NCBI GenBank assembly: GCA_016840035.1
Contig: JAEOTC010000200.1
Coordinates: 1 to 45,743, forward strand
DNA: 45,743 bases
From: Candidatus Hodarchaeota archaeon
GTDB taxonomy: Archaea > Asgardarchaeota > Heimdallarchaeia > Hodarchaeales > Hodarchaeaceae
Direction: 5' to 3'
A model generated the notes under the pieces. The model was not told the DNA's origin and ran no database searches. It was given only the letters and a program-made list of their open reading frames with translations. Shown piece after piece: positions 7,909-41,092 of the stretch. Position numbers and translations under genes: made by a program. How positions within the stretch are numbered: the stretch's first letter is position 1; each line of letters begins with the position of its first letter.

Positions 7909-8406
7909 ATGACTGAAACAAAAAAATATGAAATGACAATTAAAGATAAGGCAATTTCTGTATACTTGATTGTAGGAGCTGTTGTACAATTTCTCATGAT
8001 GTTTCTTTATGGAAATTGGTTTAATTTAGACATCCTCTTCTATGTAGGGTTACTGTTTGCAGTTATTTCGGGAGTTTTGATACTATCTTCAAATGTATTA
8101 AAAGAACAAGGCGAGATGGAGAAGGGAAAAGGATTCGTAACAACGAAACTTGTAGATAGTGGAATTTATGGAATTATTAGACATCCAATTTATGGTAGTC
8201 TCTTTTATCTATTCATAGGTTTCGCTCTAATATCTCAACATCCAGTCAGTCTATTTTTTGGATTGACCATGTCACCATTCTGTTATTATTTTATGCTAGC
8301 TGAGGAAAAAATGACCATTAACAAATTTGGAGATGAGTATGTCGAATATATGAAAAAAGTCCCGAGACTTAATTTGTTAATTGGATTATGGCGCAAAATA
8401 AAGTAA
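7909..8406 (+). CDS. Isoprenylcysteine carboxyl methyltransferase / PEMT family membrane protein
   Basis: LVDSGIYGIIRHPIYG, EEKM...FGDEYVEYMKKVPR. Confidence 0.9.
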   Translation: MTETKKYEMTIKDKAISVYLIVGAVVQFLMMFLYGNWFNLDILFYVGLLFAVISGVLILSSNVLKEQGEMEKGKGFVTTKLVDSGIYGIIRHPIYGSLFYLFIGFALISQHPVSLFFGLTMSPFCYYFMLAEEKMTINKFGDEYVEYMKKVPRLNLLIGLWRKIK

Positions 8407-8526
8407 AATAGTACTTCTATTCTTTGGGACTTATAATCAATAAGAAAAAAATAAGGAAGATATATTCATATCTTCACATAGAGAAGTCTGGATTTTATTC
8501 AAAACCTGTAAAGACTTTATAAATTA

Positions 8527-8856
8527 CTATGGGGGTTTAGGATCCCACCGATATTGGTATTGGTGTTGCCATTCCAAAGCCCAGTGATGCATTGCCATCT
8601 TTGGATCTTGTTCGTCCAAAGGCCCATATTGATTTCTTTTTCCATCACCTTGATTGGGATCTCCACCGTCTTCTCCATCAGAAGGAGCAGGACAATCGTC
8701 ATCACGATCGCGATCGCGATCACGGTCTAAATCCCCATTTTGAAGACCATCACCAGGGTTATCAGGTGCAGCTAAAGCGACCCCGAGTCCTCCTGATATA
8801 AGAAGGACTACAGAGAGTAATACTAGTGTAAATAAACGAATTTTTATTTTAATCAC
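8527..8856 (-). CDS. Small secreted low-complexity protein
   Basis: Signal peptide ending ALA-A; D/G/N-rich body with DRDRDRDRDDDC; aromatic/His/Gln C-terminus. Confidence 0.65.
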   Translation of the reverse strand: MIKIKIRLFTLVLLSVVLLISGGLGVALAAPDNPGDGLQNGDLDRDRDRDRDDDCPAPSDGEDGGDPNQGDGKRNQYGPLDEQDPKMAMHHWALEWQHQYQYRWDPKPP

Positions 8857-8978
8857 CTACAATTTCTTGATTTCGGCCACAAAAATGTTTCAAATTTGTG
8901 ACTGAGATGGGTGTTTTTCCTTTATTATTAATGAAATGAGGAACATTTTTTTGCCAATCAGTTCAACACAAACTAATC

Positions 8979-9995
8979 ATGAAGAATCGTCACACCTTTA
9001 CAGAGGAAGAGCTTGAGATACCTATTGATAGTATTATACTTTCTGGGACGTTAACTCTTCCACTAAGAATAGATTCACCTCCTATTGTGATTTTACTCAG
9101 TGGCTATGGGCCCTGGGAACGGGATTCTGAAAAAGATGGCTTGAAGAAATTCCGTATTATCTCTTCTTATCTGGCCGAAAATGGAATTGCCTCATTTAGG
9201 TACGATGATCGTGGAGCTGGTAAGTCTTCTCCCGTAAAGTGGTCTGATTTCACGTTTTATGATCTTGCTGATGAAGTACAGACGATACTCCAATTTCTTA
9301 GGAGTCATCCAAAGCTACTTTCCTCTCAAATTGGCTTACTTGGGTATAGTTTGGGGGCAGCCATTGCACCTATAACAGCATCACTATCAGAAGAAGTTAG
9401 TTTTCTTGTCTTAATAGGTGCACATGGACTTATCGGGACTGAAACCGGAAGAATAACACGTAAATATATTGGCCAATCGTTAGGAGAATCTAACCAAGCT
9501 TCTGAAGAAGGAATGAGGTTTGTTTCCTCAGTTTACAATGAAATTCTTACTGATAGGGATTGGGCACAGGTACAATCAGACCTATTAAGTAATTTAGAAC
9601 AGAAATATCAGAAATTATCGGATAAAGAAAAAGGAGATTTTGCATCTGTTGAGGATTATCTAAAAACAACCTATGAAGGTTTTCTATATTCTGAAGGGAA
9701 TACACCCATGTTTCGTTCATTTCTAACGTATGATCCAATTGATTCTCTTTCGAAAGTCAAATGCCCTTCTTTACTATTTTTTGCAGAACAAGATTTCTTT
9801 CACCCTCCTTATGAGCATAAGCAGGCAATTCTAACTGCTTTCTCTGAGACAGGAAACGATTTTGTAACAGTCAAAGAGTTCCCTCAGACAACACATGAGT
9901 TTACAACAATAGAATCGCGAGTTCGAAAGGAATTTGCTCCTGGTTTTCTTCCAACAATCAGTGAATGGATAAAAAACGTAATATACAGAAAATAA
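8979..9995 (+). CDS. Alpha/beta hydrolase
   Basis: LLSGYGP, RYDDRGAGKS, nucleophile GYSLG, acid EQD, His in TTHEF. Confidence 0.9.
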   Translation: MKNRHTFTEEELEIPIDSIILSGTLTLPLRIDSPPIVILLSGYGPWERDSEKDGLKKFRIISSYLAENGIASFRYDDRGAGKSSPVKWSDFTFYDLADEVQTILQFLRSHPKLLSSQIGLLGYSLGAAIAPITASLSEEVSFLVLIGAHGLIGTETGRITRKYIGQSLGESNQASEEGMRFVSSVYNEILTDRDWAQVQSDLLSNLEQKYQKLSDKEKGDFASVEDYLKTTYEGFLYSEGNTPMFRSFLTYDPIDSLSKVKCPSLLFFAEQDFFHPPYEHKQAILTAFSETGNDFVTVKEFPQTTHEFTTIESRVRKEFAPGFLPTISEWIKNVIYRK

Positions 9996-10140
9996 CTAAA
10001 GCATTGGCATGATTACTTGTAGAAGAAGGAGCTGTCATTCGGTTTCGTGTGTTAACTGATTTTCATCACGTAATGCCTTCGTATGATTTATCTGAATGAG
10101 AAACGTGAAGGGTAAATAGGGACTTCTTGATTAGAATACA

Positions 10141-10152
10141 CGAATTTATATA
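10141..10152 (+). promoter_or_regulatory. Putative archaeal BRE/TATA box of the kinase gene
   Basis: CGAA-TTTATATA about 60 bp upstream of ATG 10213. Confidence 0.45.
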
Positions 10153-10212
10153 CAAGCAGCAATATTAGATCAATAATTCGTCCTTATGATAAGTCATTCA
10201 ACGTGAAAGAGA

Positions 10213-11382
10213 ATGATCTCTAAAGAAAGAGAATTGGAATTACTCTTAGAAGCTACCAAAGAAGTGCTATCACTTCAAGAATTCAGTGTGACTGCACGTA
10301 AAATTTTTGATATGTGTAAAGAGCTAACTGGTGCGAGCGCAGGGTATGTAGCCCTTCTTAGTGAAGATGGATCAGAGAATGAAGTTCTCTTTCTGGATGC
10401 GGGTGAAAGAGAATGTTCTGTAGATCCATATCTACCCATGCCCATCAGAGGATTACGAGCTGAAGCCTATCGTGAACTGATGAGTGTCTATGATAATAAA
10501 TTTCTTCATAGTGAATGGATACAATTTATGCCAGAGGGTCATGTGGCTCTTGATAATGTAATGTTCGCCCCATTGGTAATAGAAGGCACTGCTCGAGGAC
10601 TGGTTGGTCTTGCTAATAAAGATGGTGGGTTTCTTGATGATGACGCTCGGATAGTAGCTGCTTTTGGAGATCTATGTGCCATTGCGCTACAAAATAGCTG
10701 GAATATTAATAAACAACAGAAAGCCACTCGAGAAATATCGACATTGAATGAATCGCTTTCGATAATTAATAAAATTCTTCGTCATGATCTTCTGAACGAC
10801 ATTGCAATATTGGATGGATATCTTTCTCTTTTTGACAGAGGCCAGCCACTCGAGATTAGTAAGATGTTTGGTGTTTTGAATAAAATGCAGAATCTAATCC
10901 AAAGGATGCAAGAGTTGGAGAATGTAGCATCCCCAATTCAACCAACTGAAGAAGTTGAACTCAAACCAGTTTTTACTGAATTGATTACGAATTATTCTGA
11001 TCAACCAATTGAGTTTACTATAACTGGAAATGGTTTTATCTTAGCTGATCTTGCGATTACCTCTCTTTTTGATAATATCATCCGTAATAGCGTTCTTCAC
11101 TCTAGAACGGACAGAATCGATATTCAAATTCAACCTAAGGAGCAATTTTGTGAGGTGAAAGTTACTGATTATGGGAAAGGAATGCCAAAATCAATTCGAG
11201 ATAATCTTAACCGAGGAAAGTTTTTCGGTGAATCGGATTCACCAAATCTAGGGTTATTCATTGTAACTAAACTTGTTGAAAAATATAATGGGAAGCTTTC
11301 TGTAACATCTGCAGACTTGAAAGGGACTTCCTTCATGATTCAACTAATTAACTCTAAGTATCAAGAACCAGCTGGACATTAA
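10213..11382 (+). CDS. GAF-domain sensor histidine kinase
   Basis: GAF (MFAPLV...GLVGLANK..GF...D), H-box RHDLLND, N-box NIIRNSVLH, G1 DYGKGMP, degenerate G2 PNLGLFIV. Confidence 0.9.
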   Translation: MISKERELELLLEATKEVLSLQEFSVTARKIFDMCKELTGASAGYVALLSEDGSENEVLFLDAGERECSVDPYLPMPIRGLRAEAYRELMSVYDNKFLHSEWIQFMPEGHVALDNVMFAPLVIEGTARGLVGLANKDGGFLDDDARIVAAFGDLCAIALQNSWNINKQQKATREISTLNESLSIINKILRHDLLNDIAILDGYLSLFDRGQPLEISKMFGVLNKMQNLIQRMQELENVASPIQPTEEVELKPVFTELITNYSDQPIEFTITGNGFILADLAITSLFDNIIRNSVLHSRTDRIDIQIQPKEQFCEVKVTDYGKGMPKSIRDNLNRGKFFGESDSPNLGLFIVTKLVEKYNGKLSVTSADLKGTSFMIQLINSKYQEPAGH

Positions 11383-11402
11383 TTAAAATACTCTGATCTA
11401 AA

Positions 11403-12239
11403 TTACAGAGTGTTGTTTATTGCTTTGATGATTGCTTCGCGAATTCCATCACGTGGTGCCTCATATCCCCAAGAGATTTCCTTTCCATTAACAAAAATTG
11501 CACGGGAGATTTGATGAGTTAGGAATTGTTTACGATCATCAGATGAGTACTCATGGAGCACAACTTGATCTTTAAATTCAGTGACAACTTCTCGGACTCT
11601 TTCTGCTTCTGTGTTCGAAGTTTCACAAAACGTATTGTAAAATAAATCAATAACTACACTACCTGAAGTAGGCTCATAGACATAATTTCGTACTAGAAAC
11701 TTAGGTTTCTCCGCAGATTGGTCGTGTATCTTCCATAACATCAGTTCCGTATAATTTCCTGCGGAATGTGAGATTTTATCGATTTCTTGATATCCATGAT
11801 TTCTAAAAAATTGCGCTGGCATTAGAAAAAAATCGGAATTCCAATCATAAGCAATTAATACAACCCCCTTTTTCCCTTGATTCTTACATTCTTTTTCCGC
11901 GGCATCTAACAGTTCCTTCCCAATCCCTTTTCCTTTGAATGGCTCATTGATATTGAGACACGGAATTACTAAGAGATCTTTTCCGATAGGCCCCCAAGGG
12001 CTTATTTCTATTGGTAGGCAGTAAAGAAATCCTACTCTTACATTATTTAACAGAGCTACTTTAGCCCGAAAGCCTTCTCGATATTTTTCCCGAAACCATT
12101 TGGTTCGATTGCTTCTAAATGCTAAGCAATCAGCAATAAATATTGGATTATCTTTCGCTTCCTCTCTACTATGCCCACACATACTTACAAACTCCTCATC
12201 CTCCAGTTGCATGTCTCTTATGGTGATTTCTGGTACCAT
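11403..12239 (-). CDS. GNAT acetyltransferase with YoaP-like C-terminal domain
   Basis: IPCLNINEPFKGKGIGKELL, FLMPAQFFRNHGY, thioredoxin-like tail AIFVNGKEI. Confidence 0.8.
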   Translation of the reverse strand: MVPEITIRDMQLEDEEFVSMCGHSREEAKDNPIFIADCLAFRSNRTKWFREKYREGFRAKVALLNNVRVGFLYCLPIEISPWGPIGKDLLVIPCLNINEPFKGKGIGKELLDAAEKECKNQGKKGVVLIAYDWNSDFFLMPAQFFRNHGYQEIDKISHSAGNYTELMLWKIHDQSAEKPKFLVRNYVYEPTSGSVVIDLFYNTFCETSNTEAERVREVVTEFKDQVVLHEYSSDDRKQFLTHQISRAIFVNGKEISWGYEAPRDGIREAIIKAINNTL

Positions 12240-12407
12240 AAGTATATAGTCAAGGATAATGATATTACTTTTTGCTTTGTAAATATGATTCCCTGTGATT
12301 TTATTGTGTTGTTTTTACCATTTTATCTGAGTATGAGTTCCTCTGATCCACATTCCTATTTCAGTAGATAATCTCTTTCAGAATCTTTGATAGCTTCTCT
12401 GAAATAT

Positions 12408-12971
12408 TTATGAGTTGTTTTTTCGAGTATTGGAAAACTGTTTTAATCTACCATTAGATAGATCAAAGAACCCATGTGGATCAGAGTCATCACTTATAGG
12501 CATCTCATCTTTTGACTTATCAGTAGTCTCAAAAGCTTGCCGTTTTGTGATGCTATTCTCTGATTCGTTGCTTGATTCCCTACTAGGAAAATAATTTTGG
12601 TCTAATCTTGATTTCAAAAAGGCAGATATTGGGGGATTATTGATAGCGAATAATGAAGCTTCACTAAGTTTTCTGGAGTCATTATAACTGCCCGGGATTC
12701 TTTTTGAGTGTGGGTTTTCAGCAAAAGAAAATCCCCTGTACGCCTGTCTTAAATAGAAGAGTGATATAAAAACAAAGATAATCATACCTACAAACTCTCC
12801 TAAGAATAATAAAGGAATAAGGGATAATAATCCACAGACTAATAATGCATATCGATTTGCTGCTAGGGAACAGTTAGATGAACAAACCCATACCTCCCCA
12901 CTAAAAACTGAAGATTTACTATGCTTTAGACTAATACGTTCAGAACCACATATCTGACATCTAATATTCAC
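12408..12971 (-). CDS. Hypothetical membrane protein with N-terminal Cys cluster
   Basis: CQIC...CSSNC, two TM helices, GGAGGT SD before the GTG start. Confidence 0.65.
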   Translation of the reverse strand: MNIRCQICGSERISLKHSKSSVFSGEVWVCSSNCSLAANRYALLVCGLLSLIPLLFLGEFVGMIIFVFISLFYLRQAYRGFSFAENPHSKRIPGSYNDSRKLSEASLFAINNPPISAFLKSRLDQNYFPSRESSNESENSITKRQAFETTDKSKDEMPISDDSDPHGFFDLSNGRLKQFSNTRKNNS

Positions 12972-31526: not shown

Positions 31527-33644
31527 TCAGGTCTCTCCTCTTTTTTTTTCCGATTTGAGGAATAAGTTCATTTTTTTCTTTTGTCTCCGTTTATAGCCCG
31601 AAAAAAGAATTACTCCAGTTCCCAAAAATAAAAAACCAAAATCTGTGGAATTTTGAGTGGTTGAACTTTCATCGGGGGTAGAATTACCATTTTGGATAGT
31701 GAATAACCAATCAGAGACATCCCATGCAGTTATGCCTATAGAACAAGTAGCAACAACCTTGAGTAGGTAACTAAAACCATCTTGGACGGTATTTGTATTC
31801 CAGAGAAGCTCAGTAGTATAAAGATTTGATTCAATTTGATCCCAAGTAACTCCACAATCAGATGAATAATAAACTGAGTAGTGAATTATATGAAAATAAG
31901 GATCAAGTGAGGAATCCCATTTAACGGTGATTGTCCCTGAGAGAGTTTCCATTCCATTAGGATGCATTATTTTTGGAACAGTAATCTCATGGAAAGGAAC
32001 ATAATGCCATGGAGAAAACCCCCCTAAGATTTCATAGGGTATCGTACGTGGAGATTCATCTTGATTTAATGAAGAACCTGCAAGAATATACGGGGAGTCC
32101 ACTATCTCATCTAAATTATTGTCTGGAGTTGTCCACTCATTCCAAAAATTTTTTTCCACTACATTGTTTATTCCGCTATCATGTGCCTGGGAATTGCCAT
32201 AATTATTCCCATAGAAGTTATTCCTTCTAACGTTAATAAAATTCGATTTTAGGAGATTTACACCAAAGTTGGAATTATTGAAAAGAAGATTGGTCTCTAT
32301 TAAACCACTATTTGTTTCCTGATAGAGTATTCCTTGACTGTTGTTGAAAACCGTATTATTGTATATACTATTTAATCCAGAAGCTTGAGCCTCTATTCCA
32401 TTCTGGAGATTATTCATAACGGAATTATTAAAGAATTCGTTGAAAGTTGAATGAGAAAGAAGTATCCCACTTTTACTGCTCTTAGTTATGATATTTCCAT
32501 CGAGAGTGCATTCATCTGTATGGTCTAGGATAATACCATGGGTTTTGCTGTTTGAAATCTCATTGTTATGCAAGGAAATGTTCAAACAATAAAATGTACT
32601 TAAACTTTTTAATTTTTGATTATTCACCATTACAGAGTCGCAATTGACTAGAATGATTTGTTCTGCATTTTCTGGAACTATCTCACTTTGGATATTCTGC
32701 CAAAAAACTAATTTCTTTCCATTTATCGAATTATTCTGGATATCTGTTTGGAAGTAGTGATCAATATTTTCACCACTAATAGTAAATGTATTATTTTCTA
32801 ATTTATTACCAACTATTGTACAATTTCCAGTATTCTGGATAAATACACCCGTAAAACTTCCTTTAAAGTCATTATGAGAGATATAATTACTCCAGAGGGT
32901 ACAATTATTGGAATTTTCTAATTTAACTCCATCGTTACCATGATAGGTAATTGAATTATTGAGCAGGGTACAATCTCGGGAATTAGTAAATCTTGCCCCA
33001 TAGTTACCATTATGGATAATTGAGTTATTAGAAATATAACAGTTTATTGATGCCCAAATCAGAAATCCATCTATACCCACGTTAATAACTTTATTATTAG
33101 ATAGTGTGCAATTGCCTGAATTCACTAATGAGATGCCAGTTTGTTGGATATTGGATATTGTGTTGTTAGAAATAACGGTATTCCATGATTTTGCAAGATT
33201 AATGCCATAAAAATAGCTAATACTAATTGAGCTGTTGATAATTGATCCATTGGTTACGTTATTGAGAGATATCCCCCCAAACCCCCCTTTTACAATAATA
33301 TTCCTAATTTCAAAATATACAGCAGTGTTGCTAATGTCTATCAAAACTTCAGAATTACTCGTTATATCAATTCTTTCAATGATATATGGGAAATTTATTG
33401 TCCCATTCCCTTGCCACATCTCATTATTCGCTTGGATTTGAAAATTATCATTGCCATCAATTATAATTGGGTCATGATCATCATAAGGTTGGGAGATTTT
33501 GGAAGAAATTTGAAAGCTTTCACTAAACTGATACTTCGCACGAGGAGACGAATATTGATCGATTTTAGATGGGAATTCTACAACAAAACTTATACTGATC
33601 ATAGTAAACAGAAGAAATAGTAATAGCGGGTGTCTATTTTTCAG
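31527..33644 (-). CDS. NosD/beta-helix surface protein with Ig-like domain and C-terminal anchor; probable CTG start
   Basis: GNGTINFPYII, many Asn-rich repeats, NFWNEW, HPNGMETLSG, S/T linker, TM, KRRQKKK; signal peptide complete only from CTG 33644. Confidence 0.82.
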   Translation of the reverse strand: MKNRHPLLLFLLFTMISISFVVEFPSKIDQYSSPRAKYQFSESFQISSKISQPYDDHDPIIIDGNDNFQIQANNEMWQGNGTINFPYIIERIDITSNSEVLIDISNTAVYFEIRNIIVKGGFGGISLNNVTNGSIINSSISISYFYGINLAKSWNTVISNNTISNIQQTGISLVNSGNCTLSNNKVINVGIDGFLIWASINCYISNNSIIHNGNYGARFTNSRDCTLLNNSITYHGNDGVKLENSNNCTLWSNYISHNDFKGSFTGVFIQNTGNCTIVGNKLENNTFTISGENIDHYFQTDIQNNSINGKKLVFWQNIQSEIVPENAEQIILVNCDSVMVNNQKLKSLSTFYCLNISLHNNEISNSKTHGIILDHTDECTLDGNIITKSSKSGILLSHSTFNEFFNNSVMNNLQNGIEAQASGLNSIYNNTVFNNSQGILYQETNSGLIETNLLFNNSNFGVNLLKSNFINVRRNNFYGNNYGNSQAHDSGINNVVEKNFWNEWTTPDNNLDEIVDSPYILAGSSLNQDESPRTIPYEILGGFSPWHYVPFHEITVPKIMHPNGMETLSGTITVKWDSSLDPYFHIIHYSVYYSSDCGVTWDQIESNLYTTELLWNTNTVQDGFSYLLKVVATCSIGITAWDVSDWLFTIQNGNSTPDESSTTQNSTDFGFLFLGTGVILFSGYKRRQKKKMNLFLKSEKKRGET

Positions 33645-33671: not shown

Positions 33672-34583
33672 CTAGACCTCTTTGGTTTTTTCTCGATATT
33701 TCTTTCTATAGATTTTAATAAATACAACAGTGGAAATAACTATCAGACCAAAAAAGCCTGTTGAGGTTTCTGAAGTAGTAATAGTTGTGGTAGGTTTCGT
33801 TGTGGTTGTAGTAGACAGTTCCGTTGTTGTAGTAGATGTTGTTTCCTCAATAGTAAAATCACTTACAGTTATATTGTCAAAACCAGAGTTACCCCTAAAT
33901 GAAACGAAATTAAAAACTTCTGATGTTGTAGTTTCATTATCAGTAACATTAATTACTTGTTCTGAATCGAAGTAAATGTTAAATTCCCCTTGTAAATTTC
34001 TTGAGATGTCTATATGATGTGTACCAACAATAGCACTTGGAAATTCATATGTGGTCAAGATAGTAAAGCTTGGAATATATGAAGCGAAAGTTATCCCTGG
34101 AACTGCAGCACCAGCAATAGCATCCGTATTTGCCGATGAAATAAGCAATAAACCATACCCAGTGACACCCGATAAGAATTCAGTTTCAGTTAATCCCTCC
34201 ATACTGTAATTATTAACATGATCAGTAAAAATAAAGGCTACCACATCATACCCTAGATGTGAACGATTATCAACAACAGTCCAGTCGAAGCTCCAGTTGC
34301 CATACGCAACAGAACTCTCACGATAGGCAAAAGCCGCAGTATCAAAAGCAATAGTATCAGGTCCTCTGAGTACCCCGTCGATGACACTCATTCCTATTTC
34401 AGAAATTTCCGTAAACCAAGACATATATGGTCTTTGCCAGTTTTTAAATGTCCAACCAGTCGGATTTTCGGAATCGAAGATTTCAGTCCATATTACAATA
34501 GCTTGACCTTGTTGTACTGGAAAAAGCACAAGAATAATGAGAAAAGTACCAGAAAAGTTTAGAAATTTTGTTTTTTTTGTCAT
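33672..34583 (-). CDS. Secreted beta-sandwich (lectin-like) surface protein with Thr-rich stalk and C-terminal anchor
   Basis: Signal peptide, AYGNWSFD, HHIDISRN..GEFNIYFD, FDNITV, poly-Thr, TGF, TM, RKK. Confidence 0.75.
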   Translation of the reverse strand: MTKKTKFLNFSGTFLIILVLFPVQQGQAIVIWTEIFDSENPTGWTFKNWQRPYMSWFTEISEIGMSVIDGVLRGPDTIAFDTAAFAYRESSVAYGNWSFDWTVVDNRSHLGYDVVAFIFTDHVNNYSMEGLTETEFLSGVTGYGLLLISSANTDAIAGAAVPGITFASYIPSFTILTTYEFPSAIVGTHHIDISRNLQGEFNIYFDSEQVINVTDNETTTSEVFNFVSFRGNSGFDNITVSDFTIEETTSTTTTELSTTTTTKPTTTITTSETSTGFFGLIVISTVVFIKIYRKKYREKTKEV

Positions 34584-34688
34584 CTTCTATCATCAACCAC
34601 AAGAAGCAGCTAATCAGATTTGATCTTCTGTCATTAATATGGAGAACTAATATTTTCTAATTAGGTAATATATTTTCCCTGAATATTG

Positions 34689-36362
34689 CTAGGCAATTTC
34701 GTCCTCAGAGAAGACTTTTAACTTATCGATTGTGATTTTTAAGGCTTCTTTTAAGGTTAGTAAGAACTTATACCCTTTAGGTGTAATAGTATAGTTTCGA
34801 TAACGCGCATCGTGGAGAACTTTGCTGGAAACAAATGGTTCCACATACTTTAGCTTATTTAAATTCTTAATATCTTTAGAGAGTGTCGAAACAGGAATAT
34901 TTAAGCTTTGAGCCAATTTGACAAGGCTAGCTTCCTTTGGGTCTTGAAACCCAATCTCAATTAAGGTTAAAATTGTACGACCTTTGAGTCCAGAAACTAG
35001 ATCCTGTTTGATTTCATGAGGGAAGTATTCAACCAAATCTAGAGGATCTTCTGGTTTGGTGATCACAATGGTTGTCGGTTCATGATGTGGATCATTCTGA
35101 ATGTTCTCCACCCCCACAATTAACTTGTGATAGATTGGTTTCAAATCTTCGATTTGAGGATGGGAAAAAAATTCTGGCAAAAGGAGGGGAGGTTTAATAT
35201 TAGATAAGGCTGATTTTAATCTGAATTTTTCAGGATAAAGAATGTATGTTACACAAAGGGTTAAAGGAAGAAATAAGGACAATAAATATAACAATACTGA
35301 GATTAAGACCTCAAAAAATGAATTTGCTTTAGCAGGTGCATTTAAATAGTCAGTAACTGATACTAAAGGATACGGATCAGTATTGTTTGCATTTCCATCA
35401 AGGGGATACTGGAGATCGATAATTAAATCCTTGTTACTGTCAATTACAGGCCAATCATCCCAATGATTATATTCAAAAGTATTAAATGAACCGCTATCTT
35501 TCGACTGATGTCCTCCGAGATTGTTTTGATGAAAATTATTAAATGTAAAACGATTTTCAATTGCCCCAGATTCAATTAAAACTCCATATTGCCTATTATA
35601 TTGAAGATGATTGAATTCAAAAGTATTCCTATGCGCATAATCAAGACGAACACCCTGTAAGCTATTATTAAAGATGGAATTATGACTAAATTCGTTGTCG
35701 TTGGCCTGATTAAGAAGAGTAACACCGAAATGACCATCGAAAATGGCATTATTGGTAATTAGAGAATCAGAACAATTATTAAGAAGGAGATTACTGTAAA
35801 AGAGATCACCTTGATGATGATTGTAAATTGAATTATTGCTAATCGTTATGTTTTGAGTCTCTTTAAGGTAAACACCAGTTGTGAGATGATCATAGACGGA
35901 ATTGTTGATGAAAATACTGTTTGTAACGTTGGTGATTTTCAGGCCTGAAATACATTCCGCAACAACGTTCTTCTCAATAATAGCATTCCTGACGTTGGTA
36001 AGAGAGATCCCACACATCGCAGATGACCCCCCAGTTAAAAGATTACTACTAATAATGAAATGAACTGAAGTATTCTTAATACTGATTAAATCATCAGCAG
36101 TATCTGTAATACTAAAGTGTTGTATGCGATAAGGATCGGAAGATGTTCCTGTACCTAAAAATCCTTGAGAGGAGAAATCAGCGTTAGAAGTGATTAGGAT
36201 TGATGCATGAGGATTATTACTATGGTGTTTGGAAGAACTAAGAAATGAGTCACTTTCATTATCCAAGTTGCGTTGGATAATAGATGTAGAATCAGCTGAT
36301 ATCATATGAAATAGGAATCCAATAAGAGTAATGGTCAGTACTGTTCTTCGTGAGAATTTCAT
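34689..36362 (-). CDS. NosD beta-helix ectodomain - TM - cytoplasmic MarR-like winged HTH protein
   Basis: Signal peptide; beta-helix aa ~50-335; TM aa ~352-376; LAQSLNIPVSTLSKDIKNL...DARYRNYTITPKG. Confidence 0.8.
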   Translation of the reverse strand: MKFSRRTVLTITLIGFLFHMISADSTSIIQRNLDNESDSFLSSSKHHSNNPHASILITSNADFSSQGFLGTGTSSDPYRIQHFSITDTADDLISIKNTSVHFIISSNLLTGGSSAMCGISLTNVRNAIIEKNVVAECISGLKITNVTNSIFINNSVYDHLTTGVYLKETQNITISNNSIYNHHQGDLFYSNLLLNNCSDSLITNNAIFDGHFGVTLLNQANDNEFSHNSIFNNSLQGVRLDYAHRNTFEFNHLQYNRQYGVLIESGAIENRFTFNNFHQNNLGGHQSKDSGSFNTFEYNHWDDWPVIDSNKDLIIDLQYPLDGNANNTDPYPLVSVTDYLNAPAKANSFFEVLISVLLYLLSLFLPLTLCVTYILYPEKFRLKSALSNIKPPLLLPEFFSHPQIEDLKPIYHKLIVGVENIQNDPHHEPTTIVITKPEDPLDLVEYFPHEIKQDLVSGLKGRTILTLIEIGFQDPKEASLVKLAQSLNIPVSTLSKDIKNLNKLKYVEPFVSSKVLHDARYRNYTITPKGYKFLLTLKEALKITIDKLKVFSEDEIA

Positions 36363-36549: not shown

Positions 36550-36744
36550 CTATTTTCTTCGTTTGTACAACGTAGTAGATATTAAAACGGCTACTATAAG
36601 TGAAAAAGGATCCAATGGAAGAGCGGTATTGGCCAAGGTCGTTATGTTGGTGGTGGTAGTTGTTATGGTCATTATCGTCATAGTCTGTATCTGAACGGGA
36701 TTTTCAAAATTGATTTCCACAAACCAGATGTCATTGTAACTAGT
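36550..36744 (-). pseudogene. 3' remnant (or micro-gene) of an anchored surface protein
   Basis: TSYNDIWFVEINFENPVQIQTMTIMTITTTTTNITTLANTALPLDPFSLIVAVLISTTLYKRRK*; in-frame TGA immediately upstream, no signal peptide. Confidence 0.6.
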
Positions 36745-36816: not shown

Positions 36817-37251
36817 TCACTCAAGATTAATTAGTTTCCACCCTGTTGCTTTGGGATCCTCGTGAGCTAAAGATCGACTAGCGATATATATCACATAGAG
36901 AAGAAAACCTAGAGATTTTAAGAAACTCATGTTTTCCTTAATACTCCTAATTTCTCCATCTTCATTGACTGACACGACGCGTAAATTCATAATTTTCATG
37001 AAGACTGTCTGTCCATCCAGTACATAACACGGGATTATTGAGTAATAACCTATAAGACCCAATAAAATCCCAGGAATTAATACAAATGGGGGACTTATAT
37101 CAGGAAATACTGCTGTAAAGACAAAAAAAAGTGGAACTGCAATAAGAAGACAAGCAAAAAGAAGTATTCCAATAATAAAATCTATATATGCAACGAATCG
37201 TCGTTTGATATATCCAGGTTCATTTAATGTTGTTTTTGTATCATTTGACAT
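36817..37251 (-). CDS. RDD family membrane protein
   Basis: KRRFVAYIDF, two TM helices, GQTVFMKIMNLRVV. Confidence 0.75.
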   Translation of the reverse strand: MSNDTKTTLNEPGYIKRRFVAYIDFIIGILLFACLLIAVPLFFVFTAVFPDISPPFVLIPGILLGLIGYYSIIPCYVLDGQTVFMKIMNLRVVSVNEDGEIRSIKENMSFLKSLGFLLYVIYIASRSLAHEDPKATGWKLINLE

Positions 37252-37630: not shown

Positions 37631-37825
37631 TCAAATTGGCATATTGGTTATTGAATAGTTTCAACGCACATAACCACTCTTAACAATCCGAAAAGTGATC
37701 TGATTCTTCAGCTCATTCTTAATACGGAAATCCTAACCGAAGCTTCAGAGACTTTGGAACTATTCATTAAAATTCATAGTAATTACGAAGAAACACTGAA
37801 TTTAACTGTTAAGGATGAAAATACA

Positions 37826-38062
37826 ATGAGTGAAATACATAAAACCCTAGATGCACGCGGACTTAGTTGCCCTATGCCTGTTTTGAAATCAAAGAAAGCT
37901 TTGAAAGAAATTAATGTCGGTCAAGTGTTAGAAATTCTATCAACAGACCCTGGAAGTATGGCTGATATACCAGCATGGACCCGAACAACTGGTCAAGAAC
38001 TTCTTACCTCGGAAGAAAGAGGTCCAAAAGACTTTCGATATTTGGTCAAACGAATGAAATAA
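37826..38062 (+). CDS. tusA: Sulfur carrier TusA
   Basis: LDARGLSCPMP, STDPGSMADIPAW; frame is open upstream to 37655. Confidence 0.92.
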   Translation: MSEIHKTLDARGLSCPMPVLKSKKALKEINVGQVLEILSTDPGSMADIPAWTRTTGQELLTSEERGPKDFRYLVKRMK

Positions 38063-38078
38063 AGGATGATGCAAAAGT

Positions 38079-38570
38079 ATGAGTGAAGACAAACCCAAAC
38101 GAATGGCAATAATTGCCTCCCAAGGTACTCTTGATGCAGCATATCCTCCTGTGATCCTTGCCTCAACAGGTGTAGCTATGGATATGGAAGTAGCAATTTT
38201 CTTTACATTTTATGGTTTCGACTTAATTCACAAGAAACGTAGTAAGGACCTCAAAGTTAGTCCCATAGCCAACCCTGCCGCTCCTAAAGCATTCGGATTA
38301 ATGCCCGTTCCAAATTGGATGGGAATGTTGCCCGGGATGACCCGGATTGCGACAATGATGATGAAAAGCTGGATGAAAAAGGCTAATGTAGCAAAATTCG
38401 AAGAGCTCCGTGAAGCCTGTATCGAAGGCGGAGTCAGAATGATTGCCTGTCAAATGACCATGGATGTTATGGGCATTAAAGAAAAGGACATTATTGATGG
38501 TGTCGAAACTGGTGGTGCAGCCACTTTTCTTGAATTTGCTAAAGATGCCGATATTACTCTTTTCATGTAA
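38079..38570 (+). CDS. dsrE: DsrE2-type (DsrE/DsrF/DrsH-like) sulfurtransferase
   Basis: GTLDAAYPP, IFFTFYG, IACQMTMDVMG, GAATFL. Confidence 0.88.
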   Translation: MSEDKPKRMAIIASQGTLDAAYPPVILASTGVAMDMEVAIFFTFYGFDLIHKKRSKDLKVSPIANPAAPKAFGLMPVPNWMGMLPGMTRIATMMMKSWMKKANVAKFEELREACIEGGVRMIACQMTMDVMGIKEKDIIDGVETGGAATFLEFAKDADITLFM

Positions 38571-38600
38571 TTCTCGTTTTTTAATTTTTAGGTGATTTTT

Positions 38601-39011
38601 ATGGGAAAACTTCTAATGGTATGTGATTCTGCAGCCACAGATAAACTGCAGACCTTAGCAATTATCGCTTCAGGGATGGTAACCAGTGATCATGAGGTAG
38701 TTATCTTCTTTATGCATGATGCTGTTTATGCCTTGAAAAAGGATGCTCCTCCTGAGCCTGAGGTTACGAGTATTTATCCTGAAGTTGCCGAAAAGGTGAA
38801 TCAGGCAAGAAAAGCAGGTAACCTGTTACACTGGAAAGGACTTCTGGAAGATTTAAAAGACTTAGGTGATGTAGAAATCGTCGCTTGTGTCCAAATTACA
38901 GAAATACTAGGTTTAGAGAAAGAAGATCTTCATCCTATGGTTGATAAAGTTGCAGGAGTAAATACTCTTGCTGAGCAAGCGATGCTTGCTGATAGAGTTA
39001 TGTTTCTTTAA
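38601..39011 (+). CDS. DsrE family protein
   Basis: VIFFMHDAV, IVACVQ, VAGVNT; AGGTGA SD. Confidence 0.8.
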   Translation: MGKLLMVCDSAATDKLQTLAIIASGMVTSDHEVVIFFMHDAVYALKKDAPPEPEVTSIYPEVAEKVNQARKAGNLLHWKGLLEDLKDLGDVEIVACVQITEILGLEKEDLHPMVDKVAGVNTLAEQAMLADRVMFL

Positions 39012-39039
39012 TTATAGAAAATTGAATGGTGAATAAACA

Positions 39040-39282
39040 ATGAGTAATGAAGTACAAGCAGATAAGGTCATGGATGCACGCAATGCTTTCTGTCCAGGCC
39101 CTCTGATGGAATTAATCAAATCTATTAAGAAAGGCGAAGTTGGTAAAGTCTATGAAGTTTGGAGTAAAGATGCAGGCTCCATTCAAGACATTCCTAAATG
39201 GGTTGCGAAAGCTAGCCAAGAAATGGTTGCCGTTGTCGAAGAGAATGGCTACACTCGTTTTCAAGTAAGGAAGGTCAAGTAA
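39040..39282 (+). CDS. tusA: Second TusA-family sulfur carrier
   Basis: MDARNAFCPGPLMEL, DAGSIQDIPKW. Confidence 0.9.
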   Translation: MSNEVQADKVMDARNAFCPGPLMELIKSIKKGEVGKVYEVWSKDAGSIQDIPKWVAKASQEMVAVVEENGYTRFQVRKVK

Positions 39283-39313
39283 ATTTCTTCTTTCTTTTTC
39301 TATTGGTGATTCT

Positions 39314-40486
39314 ATGAGCGAAGATAAAGCTAAAGTTGTTATTTTAGGTGGGGGCACTGGTGGAGTTATAGTTGCCAATCTCCTTGGACGGAAGGCAAAA
39401 AAACAAGCAGAGGTTACATTAGTTTCTAAGCAAGAGAATGTTTTTTACGAAGCAGATCTCCCTTATCGCATTTTTGACAAGAAATCTCTCAAGTCGATGT
39501 ACAAACCTGTACGGAATGTTGTTAATAAAAATGTAGAAGTTCTTAAAGACGAAGTAATAGGATTAGATCTTGATAAAAATTCAGTTGCACTAAGCAGTGG
39601 AAATAATCTTCCTTATGATTATTTAGTAATAGCTACTGGTGCTCATTATGATTATGATGGTGTTCCAGGATATAAAGAAGAAGCATATCATTATTACAAC
39701 GAGGAAGGCATTAATGAAATTAGGAAAGCCCTAGATGAGTTTGTTGAAAAAGGTACCGGTGGAAATGTTGTCATAGGAATTGCTGATTTACCATTTAAAT
39801 GTCCTGTAGCACCCCTTGAGGGAGTGTTCATGATGGAACATTTTCTAAGACGTAAAAAATTACGAAAGAAAACTGAATTACATTATTTAAGTCCTATTGG
39901 TAGTGCTTTCTCAATTGAAAAGGCTAATGTTCATATCGAGAAAAAATTTGCTAAGAAGAACATTAATTTACACACCTTCTTTAATACAGAAACCATTCAT
40001 CCCGATCGAAAGGTTATAGAATCTCTTGAAGGAGATGAAATTGAATACGATCTTTTAATTATGGTTCCACCTCACCGTGGACAAGGGTTTTTACAGGGAA
40101 CTCCCATTGTCGATGAAAGTGGATGGGTCAATGTAAATACAAAAACTCTTCAAAATGAAACATATCCGAATGTTTTTGCAATTGGAGATGCTGCTAATCT
40201 TCCTGTATCCAAAGCCGGTTCCTCCGCCCATTACCAAGCTATGGCTACCGCTCATAATTTGGTGGACGTGCTAAAAGGAAAACTTGACATTTCCCAAGTA
40301 AAGGAGAGATATAATGGTCATGCTACCTGTTTAGTAATGACTTCATTGACTTCTGCAATGTTTTTCGATTTTAATTATACCCGCCCTCCTTTCGGGCTAG
40401 GATATATCTCGAATCGTTTGTTCTACTACTTTAAAAAGTATCAGAGATTCCTATATTTCTATGGTTTCTTGTCAGGTCGTTTGTAA
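39314..40486 (+). CDS. sqr: Sulfide:quinone oxidoreductase-like flavoprotein (type III-like)
   Basis: GGGTGG, YDYLVIATG, FKCPVAPLE, FAIGDA, KAGS, YNGHATC; aromatic/basic amphipathic C-terminus. Confidence 0.82.
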   Translation: MSEDKAKVVILGGGTGGVIVANLLGRKAKKQAEVTLVSKQENVFYEADLPYRIFDKKSLKSMYKPVRNVVNKNVEVLKDEVIGLDLDKNSVALSSGNNLPYDYLVIATGAHYDYDGVPGYKEEAYHYYNEEGINEIRKALDEFVEKGTGGNVVIGIADLPFKCPVAPLEGVFMMEHFLRRKKLRKKTELHYLSPIGSAFSIEKANVHIEKKFAKKNINLHTFFNTETIHPDRKVIESLEGDEIEYDLLIMVPPHRGQGFLQGTPIVDESGWVNVNTKTLQNETYPNVFAIGDAANLPVSKAGSSAHYQAMATAHNLVDVLKGKLDISQVKERYNGHATCLVMTSLTSAMFFDFNYTRPPFGLGYISNRLFYYFKKYQRFLYFYGFLSGRL

Positions 40487-40534
40487 AGATATAGAAAATT
40501 CGGTTTACAGACGGTGAAAGGAGATTAAATGTAA

Positions 40535-41092
40535 ATGATTGATGAGAAGGACAAAGATATTATCAACTACTTTCAAAAGGATCCCCGAAGTTCATTTAAC
40601 AGGGCTGCTGAAGTGCTAGGCCTGGCTAAAGGTACTGTTAAAGCACGTTATGAGAAATTAGTAGAACAAAATCTAATTTCTCCAGGGATAGGAATGAACG
40701 TCGCTCAACTCAAATTCTCCCATGCTCTTTCTTTCATTGAAATCACAGATCCTGAAACCGAGAAAGCAATATTGGACTATTTCAATGATTGTCCCCTGGT
40801 GACAGCAATGTTTTCTGTTTCAGGGTTTGAATATAATCTCGTAATCTGTCTGGTAGCCGATAAGCGTGAAAAGATTAGCAAGTTTATCGATACTTTTCCC
40901 CTTAGTCATCTTCCAGGAGTGAAAAGACGGAATAGTTATTTCATTAAGGAAACAGAAGGGTATTCAGATAAACCCTTTTGGCTATTTTCTCCTCCAACAT
41001 CTGAAAAGAATATCTTCGACGATCACACGTGTCAGAATCGCTGTGGAGCATGTGGGGTTATCTCCCAGATACAAAAGAAAGTAACTAACTAA
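40535..41092 (+). CDS. Lrp/AsnC regulator with Cys-rich C-terminal tail
   Basis: IDEKDKDII...DPRSSF...GTVKARYEKL; CPLV; HTCQNRCGAC. Confidence 0.85.
   Translation: MIDEKDKDIINYFQKDPRSSFNRAAEVLGLAKGTVKARYEKLVEQNLISPGIGMNVAQLKFSHALSFIEITDPETEKAILDYFNDCPLVTAMFSVSGFEYNLVICLVADKREKISKFIDTFPLSHLPGVKRRNSYFIKETEGYSDKPFWLFSPPTSEKNIFDDHTCQNRCGACGVISQIQKKVTN

Follow-up and report, generated by a model that had tools for sequence, protein, structure and literature searches.

Transmembrane transcription regulators (TTRs), in which a DNA-binding domain and at least one transmembrane (TM) segment are united in one protein, are a recognised class in both bacteria and archaea, although a text search of the census describing them returned no mention of MarR or Asgard (PMC10269533). 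Among TTRs, ToxR, TcpP and CadC have a single TM helix that links an extracytoplasmic sensor to a DNA-binding domain in one chain, and they are considered to act from the membrane. In Bacteroidota, BguR and SusR consist of a signal peptide, a sensor, a TM helix and a C-terminal helix-turn-helix (HTH), and BguR was shown genetically to be an activator, with a conserved motif preceding the adjacent gene cluster (bioRxiv 10.64898/2026.01.10.698779). In Sulfolobus acidocaldarius, ArnR and ArnR1 are characterised archaeal membrane-bound one-component activators of genes for cell-surface structures (PMC6396743). The present analysis concerns P0001, a gene of Candidatus Hodarchaeota archaeon (Asgardarchaeota, Heimdallarchaeia, Hodarchaeales; NCBI GenBank assembly GCA_016840035.1) that lies on contig JAEOTC010000200.1; the whole stretch analysed, positions 1 to 45,743 of this contig (45,743 nucleotides), is referred to as the window. 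Transmembrane signal transduction is poorly known in Asgard archaea and, to our knowledge, no regulator-operator pair has been defined in these organisms. P0001 is probably (at a rough probability of 0.7) a dimeric, membrane-spanning one-component regulator of the adjacent genes for glycan-binding surface proteins. Its architecture, topology, fold, family, synteny and cis-element were established computationally. What is new is a candidate operator, TTTC-N6-GAAA, located a short distance upstream of a TATA-like box in the gap that separates the regulator gene from the surface-protein gene following it in the same direction. The parts of P0001 are:

34689-36362, minus strand: whole gene P0001, 557 residues (open reading frame and translation), a receptor-like transmembrane regulator
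36294-36362, minus strand: signal peptide, residues 1-23, read from the sequence (K/R-rich n-region, hydrophobic core, ISA-D)
35472-36194, minus strand: right-handed parallel beta-helix ectodomain of the NosD/PbH1 type, residues 57-297 (Pfam)
35235-35309, minus strand: single TM helix, residues 352-376 (Kyte-Doolittle maximum 2.48)
35154-35234, minus strand: juxtamembrane Pro-rich linker, residues 377-403 (predicted local distance difference test, pLDDT, of about 40 in the model)
34692-35153, minus strand: MarR-like winged-helix module, residues 404-557 (AlphaFold model, Foldseek, profile and alignment), with a dimerisation helix (404-422), a recognition helix (491-503), the wing signature (518-530) and a long C-terminal helix (528-556)

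With a TM helix at residues 352-376 and a DNA-binding-type domain at residues 404-557 of one protein, P0001 falls under the definition used in the TTR census. The domain order of ToxR and CadC is reversed in it, as an earlier reading of this DNA (hereafter the preliminary description) had correctly pointed out: in these proteins a winged helix-turn-helix (wHTH) of the OmpR type stands at the N-terminus, the topology is type II and a signal peptide is absent, whereas P0001 has a MarR-like wHTH at the C-terminus, a cleavable signal peptide and a predicted type I topology. The same description knew of no characterised example, which is too strong a statement because the bacterial SusR and BguR have the same layout and TTRs are an established class (PMC10269533). 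P0001 shares with BguR and SusR the order of parts, a large extracytoplasmic sensor of a glycan type, a linker, a predicted dimer and the lack of phosphorelay domains. Likewise, the gene adjoins those under its (in P0001, probable) control, and the intergenic region in front of the first structural gene carries a conserved motif. The proteins are unrelated in sequence, and the likeness is one of architecture only. The DNA-binding domain is of the GerE/LuxR type in BguR and SusR and a MarR-like winged helix in P0001, in which Pfam found no match to GerE or Y_Y_Y; the sensor is a tandem beta-propeller with Y_Y_Y in the former and a beta-helix in the latter, with other folds in its paralogues; and the promoters are bacterial sigma-70 promoters in the one case and archaeal promoters with TATA box and transcription factor B recognition element (BRE) in the other. 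Genetic evidence exists for BguR, whereas the P0001 family is described here by computation.

ArnR and ArnR1 resemble P0001 in being archaeal, membrane-anchored and one-component, with surface-related targets (probable ones for P0001), but ArnR is unrelated to it in sequence. ArnR reportedly has its HTH at the N-terminus and its TM helices at the C-terminus, almost lacks an ectodomain and senses on the cytoplasmic or membrane side, which is the opposite layout to P0001. A similar logic, in which the sensor is paralogous to the regulated surface proteins, is found in the RsgI/SigI systems of Clostridium thermocellum, where the extracellular sensor module is said to be a paralogue of carbohydrate-binding or carbohydrate-active modules of the regulated surface proteins. 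RsgI, however, is reported to be an anti-sigma factor that works via a separate sigma factor and regulated proteolysis, whereas sensor and DNA-binding domain of P0001 form one chain.

For the C-terminal part of P0001, the preliminary description had claimed a wHTH with a MarR-like wing at about residues 460-545 and had proposed AlphaFold and Foldseek analyses of residues 380-557. On Pfam alone, a C-terminal wHTH would amount to a hint: among the curated MarR models, no Pfam match lies above its cut-off (MarR_2 reaches 14.5-17 bits and HTH_34 19.6-21.9 bits, against 27 in both cases) and the MarR-type models of NCBIfam score far below theirs. In the AlphaFold model of the C-terminal part, the mean pLDDT is 80, with the first 29 residues, which constitute the linker, below 50 and residues 404-557 at about 90. 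The best 50 Foldseek matches in the PDB all belong to the MarR family (MepR, MarR, FabT, ZitR, RovA and others), several of them solved on DNA, and the family profile matches MarR-family PDB chains by sequence (E 2.5e-4). The wing of P0001, DARYRNYTITPKG, fits the MarR signature D-x-R-x5-[LIV]-T-x-x-G; across 118 aligned modules, D518, R520 and G530 never vary and T527 and K529 hardly do, and this wing signature together with the basic recognition helix STLSKEIKKL forms the most conserved part of the family. The C-terminal part is confidently predicted to fold as a MarR-type winged helix, which bears out both the fold and the wing originally claimed.

The module has the winged-helix core and the wing signature in common with soluble members of the MarR family (MepR, MarR, FabT and ZitR; PDB 3eco, 3bpx, 6jbx and 5yi3), as well as dimerisation via N- and C-terminal helices, which is predicted here, and, in its candidate operator, a palindrome whose half-sites are spaced by one helical turn. 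Unlike these proteins, it ends in one long helix where two are usual, has three extra residues inserted ahead of the wing, stays below the Pfam cut-offs, is membrane-tethered and would receive its input from outside the cell, without an obvious role for a cytoplasmic ligand pocket. A homodimer model of the module passed its controls and supports a dimer, with a score of 0.53 compared to 0.01 for the best control, but this shows likeness and possibly memory of the predictor rather than proof because MarR dimers are already present in the PDB. For calibration, that mark was reached by 20 of 30 solved one-chain pairs and by one of 23 solved single chains. Contact agreement between the homodimer runs was at least 64% and partner pLDDT at least 68. 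The modelled interface consists of the N-terminal helix (residues 412-423) and the C-terminal helix (residues 542/549), in the mode of MarR proteins.

The orientation in the membrane was assessed on 122 family members, in which Lys and Arg residues were counted over 15 residues on each side of the TM helix. The C-terminal flank carries 3.3 such residues on average and the N-terminal flank 1.1; the C-terminal count is the higher one in 106 of the 122 proteins and the N-terminal count in a single one. In addition, N-X-S/T sequons occur at 2.27 per 100 residues before the TM helix and at 0.49 after it, a 4.6-fold difference. By both statistics, the wHTH is cytoplasmic and the N-terminal portion lies outside the cell. 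P0001 shows the same pattern, with one Lys or Arg outside and four inside next to the TM helix, and with nine sequons in residues 1-351 compared to one in the cytoplasmic part. A type I topology with the wHTH inside the cell is supported by these biases, as had been proposed, and they do not point to an extracellular C-terminus. The tether between the end of the TM helix and the folded domain comprises 23 residues in P0001 and 15 residues in the family median. The central Pro ascribed to the TM helix was confirmed as P367; it is not a defining feature of the family, however, because a mid-membrane Pro is found in only 24 of the 122 members. Many members have a Gly-rich, GxxxG-like TM stretch that terminates with GY(F/L)LY, Gly being present in the inner half of the helix in 107 of the 122, and a juxtamembrane segment GY..Y....K is conserved.

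The N-terminal half of P0001 agrees with the signal peptide, the NosD/PbH1 beta-helix and the Pro-rich linker listed in the preliminary description. Residues 1-23, MKFSRRTVLTITLIGFLFHMISA, have the appearance of a signal peptide, which is lost in the public gene call that starts at M20; M1 can be considered the better start because orthologues of P0001 have N-terminal hydrophobic segments. Residues 57-297 are matched by Pfam Beta_helix (E 5.6e-21) and NosD (E 4.1e-17). The plus strand across 34689-36362 is interrupted by stop codons throughout. A chimeric assembly, which had been named as a possible objection, was excluded because full-length homologues of 40-54% identity are present in many independent Hodarchaeales/Heimdall assemblies, including one complete chromosome. 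In databases, members of the family are labelled as "beta-helix repeat protein" or "MarR family regulator."

An exhaustive HMMER search with residues 380-557 of P0001 yielded 112 clusters, from which 118 modules were aligned; the related loci discussed below were gathered with a narrower 22-row alignment. Throughout these clusters, the module forms the extreme C-terminus of proteins of about 200-1140 residues and follows a TM helix at a distance of 9-52 residues, with the exception of a few relatives of 116-150 residues that consist of the wHTH only and lack a TM helix. The ectodomains are diverse: among 74 representatives, for which the 25 most frequent Pfam families were listed, 33 carry a beta-helix or NosD domain, 5 a WD40 propeller and 3 an ANF_receptor/Peripla_BP_6 domain, and most of the remainder are without a common Pfam family. 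The suggested fusion of the same tail to varied ectodomains was indeed recovered, and one C-terminal module under swappable ectodomains is the pattern of a signalling output module. The family is probably one of archaeal type I membrane one-component regulators with a MarR-type output, swappable sensors and a candidate operator. The three ANF_receptor/Peripla_BP_6 and five extracellular WD40 ectodomains above the MarR-like tail are found among representatives P0063-P0164. Many eukaryotic receptors bind their ligands by a module of the ANF-receptor fold. One subfamily (C206 (L002), L026 and L030) has a very short ectodomain of about 55-90 residues with two hydrophobic segments.

In a survey of 400 genomes of the phylum, the module was detected in 17 of 21 other genomes of the GTDB family to which the window belongs, at one to six copies each. 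Outside this GTDB family it was practically absent, the exception being one of 12 genomes from another family of the class. An Asgard-wide spread is contradicted by this near-confinement to one family-level lineage. The source names of the homologues are Hodarchaeales, Hodarchaeota or Heimdallarchaeota, and some carry the submitter labels Thor, Odin or Hermod. The genome of the window (4.3 Mb, 87% complete) contains three copies, with the paralogues located on C126 and C206. Searches of the literature on Asgard archaea and Hodarchaeales returned no description of this regulator family.

Directly downstream of P0001 and on the same strand lie two genes for anchored surface proteins, as the preliminary description had stated:

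33672-34583, minus strand: probable target 1, P0002, 303 residues, with signal peptide, beta-sandwich of the ConA-like lectin/CBM66/GH16 type, Thr-rich stalk and C-terminal TM anchor
31527-33602, minus strand: probable target 2, P0003, 691 residues, a beta-helix surface protein with C-terminal anchor (Pfam Beta_helix, E 3.3e-37)

P0002 matches no Pfam family, but its model (pLDDT 78.5) shows a ConA-like beta-sandwich with fold matches in the PDB to CBM66, GH16 laminarinases and L-type lectins, and an orthologue of it sits after the closest regulator orthologue on the respective contig. The beta-helix of P0003 and the ectodomain of P0001 are paralogues (32% identity, BLASTP E 8e-17). P0002 and P0003 are separated by 69 bp and may be co-transcribed. 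A co-directional gene encoding a signal peptide and a C-terminal anchor is located directly downstream of the regulator in about 20 of 25 loci, separated from it by 56-292 bp. Regulators with a beta-helix are followed by paralogous beta-helix surface proteins (BLASTP 1e-27 to 1e-33); in the other subfamilies, BLASTP found no such paralogy between sensor and target ectodomains, and the neighbours of non-beta-helix regulators are SBBP or LVIVD propeller surface proteins. The N-terminus of P0003 (33602, minus strand), read from the first possible start as MISISFVVEFPSKIDQ, has no basic n-region and a weak hydrophobic stretch, while its counterparts in other loci have clear signal peptides. P0003 may be poorly exported, may have an unusual signal or may have been truncated at its 5' end by the arrival of P0002.

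The gap between P0001 and P0002 contains two elements on the same strand:

34654-34667, minus strand: candidate operator, the imperfect palindrome TACC-TAATTA-GAAA (family consensus TTTC-N6-GAAA), from a motif search
34633-34640, minus strand: TATA-like box ATATTAAT of the P0002 promoter, its centre 24 nt downstream of the palindrome centre and its TATA role inferred

An example of the consensus is found at the paralogue on C126, where the palindrome is followed by a T-rich TATA-like box (GTTTCTATTTAGAAAC-N14-TTTATTTA). When counted as the loose pattern T[TC][TC]C-N6-G[AG][AG]A, the palindrome occurs in 17 of 23 gaps between regulator and target, whereas 1000 shuffles gave 0.6 on average and at most 4. 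Under leave-subfamily-out scoring, the best match of the entire locus on both strands fell into the gap in 16 of 23 loci (0.26 expected), and the site in the window ranked first in its locus. A matrix trained on other genomes only, applied to the 8.58 million positions of the genome, placed the C126 site first and the site of the window (34633-34670, minus strand) third. The distance from the palindrome centre to the A/T box is 18-29 nt with a median of 21 nt (19 loci), whereas its separation from the stop codon ranges from 7 to 160 nt and that from the start codon from 47 to 151 nt, which identifies the palindrome as a promoter element. Its half-site centres are 10 bp apart, a spacing that suits a two-fold symmetric wHTH dimer, and it co-occurs with the regulator gene across about nine subfamilies. 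The conserved palindrome and the TATA-like box that precede them strengthen the earlier proposal that the downstream surface-protein genes are the likely targets.

Two other roles of the palindrome were considered and rejected. A terminator of the regulator gene does not agree with the variable distance to the stop codon and the fixed distance to the TATA-like box, nor with the sites that precede surface-protein genes lacking a regulator. Autoregulation was dismissed since the palindrome is present in just 3 of 21 regions upstream of regulator genes and is absent upstream of P0001. Matches 2 (C262) and 14 (C282) of the genome-wide matrix search are located just upstream of genes for anchored surface proteins, the C282 gene being a paralogue of P0002; from rank 4 downward, most of the listed matches fall within open reading frames. 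On C282, positions 8348-12462 comprise four co-directional genes for anchored surface proteins, two of them paralogues of P0002 (33-35% identity), and C262 encodes an anchored protein of 451 residues with a Ser/Thr stalk at 11457-12812. One gene on each of C282 and C262 is preceded by a good palindrome and an A/T box and has no regulator gene alongside. These two genes may be unlinked members of the regulon.

According to the proposed mechanism, the signal peptide would export the NosD-type beta-helix ectodomain, which is presumably glycosylated and binds a glycan or a surface, while the single TM helix and the short tether of about 25 residues would keep the MarR-like domain at the inner face of the membrane. 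In the homodimer, the two recognition helices would read the two half-sites of TTTC-N6-GAAA, which closely precedes the BRE/TATA region of the gene that follows. In this way, the regulator would control the adjacent operon of the lectin-like P0002 and of P0003, the beta-helix paralogue of its sensor, with activation most likely in view of the upstream position. A signal perceived by the ectodomain could be passed through the TM helix and the juxtamembrane GY..Y....K segment to the geometry of the DNA-binding dimer, and the cue would probably be the ligand of the regulated paralogous surface proteins, such as a glycan or surface structure. DNA binding, its sign, the ligand and action at the membrane without cleavage are what we infer from the features described above.

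Several points weigh against this reading. All Pfam wHTH matches to residues 457-542 of P0001 are below threshold (HTH_34 with E 2e-4, MarR_2 with E 7e-3, HTH_27 and others), the left half-site in the window is imperfect (TACC for TTTC), and 7 of the 23 loci have no top-ranked site in the gap. The short-ectodomain subfamily, including the copy on C206, shows the variant TTCC-N6-GGAA (TTCC-ATTTTT-GGAA), which is missed by the general matrix. This variant could reflect a specificity switch within the family, and a comparison of the recognition helix with the half-site variants TTTC and TTCC gave no clean pattern of covariation. The palindrome could also be the site of another factor. Finally, the short tether requires that the DNA comes to the membrane, the unlinked candidate sites on C262 and C282 are harder to reach for a tethered protein, and the existence of soluble wHTH-only relatives indicates that a soluble form can function in principle.

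These last points lead to the proposal, already contained in the preliminary description, that the module is released by intramembrane proteolysis. In a scheme resembling Notch or RsiW, ligand binding or ectodomain shedding would allow site-2 protease (S2P) or rhomboid to cut the TM helix, and a soluble MarR-like dimer would act on the operators. The suggested protease search detected several homologues of Peptidase_M50 (S2P) and one weak rhomboid in the genome of the window, but matches to both occur in all 14 control genomes, so that their presence is uninformative; the presenilin/signal peptide peptidase model (PF06550), also part of that search, had no match in the 87% complete genome. For the exosortase/archaeosortase model PF09721 there was likewise no match in the genome, and this result is uninformative because the model gave a match in just one of the 14 controls. 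Small or helix-destabilising residues abound in the inner half of the TM helix, namely the frequent Gly and, in P0001 and its closest relatives, a Pro, and both the soluble relatives and the good candidate operators at unlinked surface-protein genes would fit a diffusing regulator. The Pro, however, is not conserved, the Gly-rich GxxxG-like motif equally fits TM dimerisation, and no protease gene is a conserved neighbour in the 25 regulator loci. The strict adjacency of regulator and target is what would be expected of a regulator that does not diffuse, and together with the missing linked protease and the dimerisation-type TM motif it favours action from the tethered state. Specific support for proteolytic release was not obtained, and this route is regarded as unlikely. 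Its extension to a kinase-free, plug-and-play, prokaryotic Notch-like type I pathway, in which interchangeable ectodomains drive a shared MarR-like output released by ligand-triggered intramembrane proteolysis, appears distinctly improbable.

If tethered action on the adjacent promoter is retained, its sign could still be the opposite one. Most characterised MarR proteins are ligand-released repressors, and MepR, MarR and FabT are among the fold matches. With its 3' edge, the palindrome approaches the TATA-like box centre to about 13 nt, and an overlap with a BRE is conceivable, so that a tethered dimer might hold the adjacent promoter off and free it upon occupation of the ectodomain. Archaeal repressors usually act over the TATA box or the start site, but the centre of the palindrome is found about 21 nt ahead of the TATA-like box rather than over either of these. 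Moreover, BguR, which has the same layout, and ArnR (PMC6396743) are known membrane one-component regulators that function as activators. Repression is a less likely, though possible, alternative. A more distant interpretation would deprive the winged helix of its DNA-binding role altogether and consider it a protein-interaction or scaffold module of the ESCRT-II/Vps25 or cullin type, which would turn P0001 into an adhesin or enzyme at the cell surface, anchored to the cytoskeleton or the trafficking machinery, and would assign the palindrome to another regulator. Winged helices of these types are common in Asgard archaea, winged helices in general are widely reused for protein binding, and the sub-threshold wHTH models would be in agreement with such a role. 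In contrast, fold and profile searches gave as their best matches specifically DNA-binding MarR regulators, some of them in complex with DNA, conservation within the family peaks in the wing signature and the basic recognition helix, and a two-fold symmetric element with 10-bp half-site spacing accompanies the gene across the subfamilies. This interpretation is considered highly improbable.

Further features surround the locus. A short open reading frame at 36550-36681 (minus strand; open frame to about 36740) ends 187 bp upstream of the regulator ATG and reads ...NDIWFVEINFENPVQIQTMTIMTITTTTTNITTLANTALPLDPFSLIVAVLISTTLYKRRK. With a Thr-rich stalk, a TM anchor and KRRK, it resembles the orphaned 3' end of a surface-protein gene of the P0002/P0003 type, and a 5' deletion at this position is plausible because on the contig of the closest orthologue a gene likewise ends about 186 bp upstream of the regulator. 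Directly upstream, a small RDD-family membrane protein (Pfam E 3.3e-7) is encoded at 36817-37251 on the minus strand; the RDD-family gene is not kept beside the regulator in other loci. On the plus strand, a sulfur-relay cluster (TusA, a DsrE2-like protein, DsrE, a flavoprotein of the sulfide:quinone type and an Lrp/AsnC regulator) adjoins the locus at 37754-41092.

With one DNA-binding output module, a predicted operator, swappable sensors and adjacent glycan-binding surface proteins as probable targets, the family offers a compact and testable case, and the operator prediction opens direct tests with recombinant protein from uncultured organisms. If release by proteolysis proved true, a Notch-like receptor-to-genome pathway would exist in the lineage nearest to eukaryotes. 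If regulation from the membrane as proposed for P0001 is true, the closest prokaryotic relatives of eukaryotes would tune their cell surface to outside cues without kinases, and the logic of the bacterial SusR and BguR would extend to archaeal TBP/TFB promoters.

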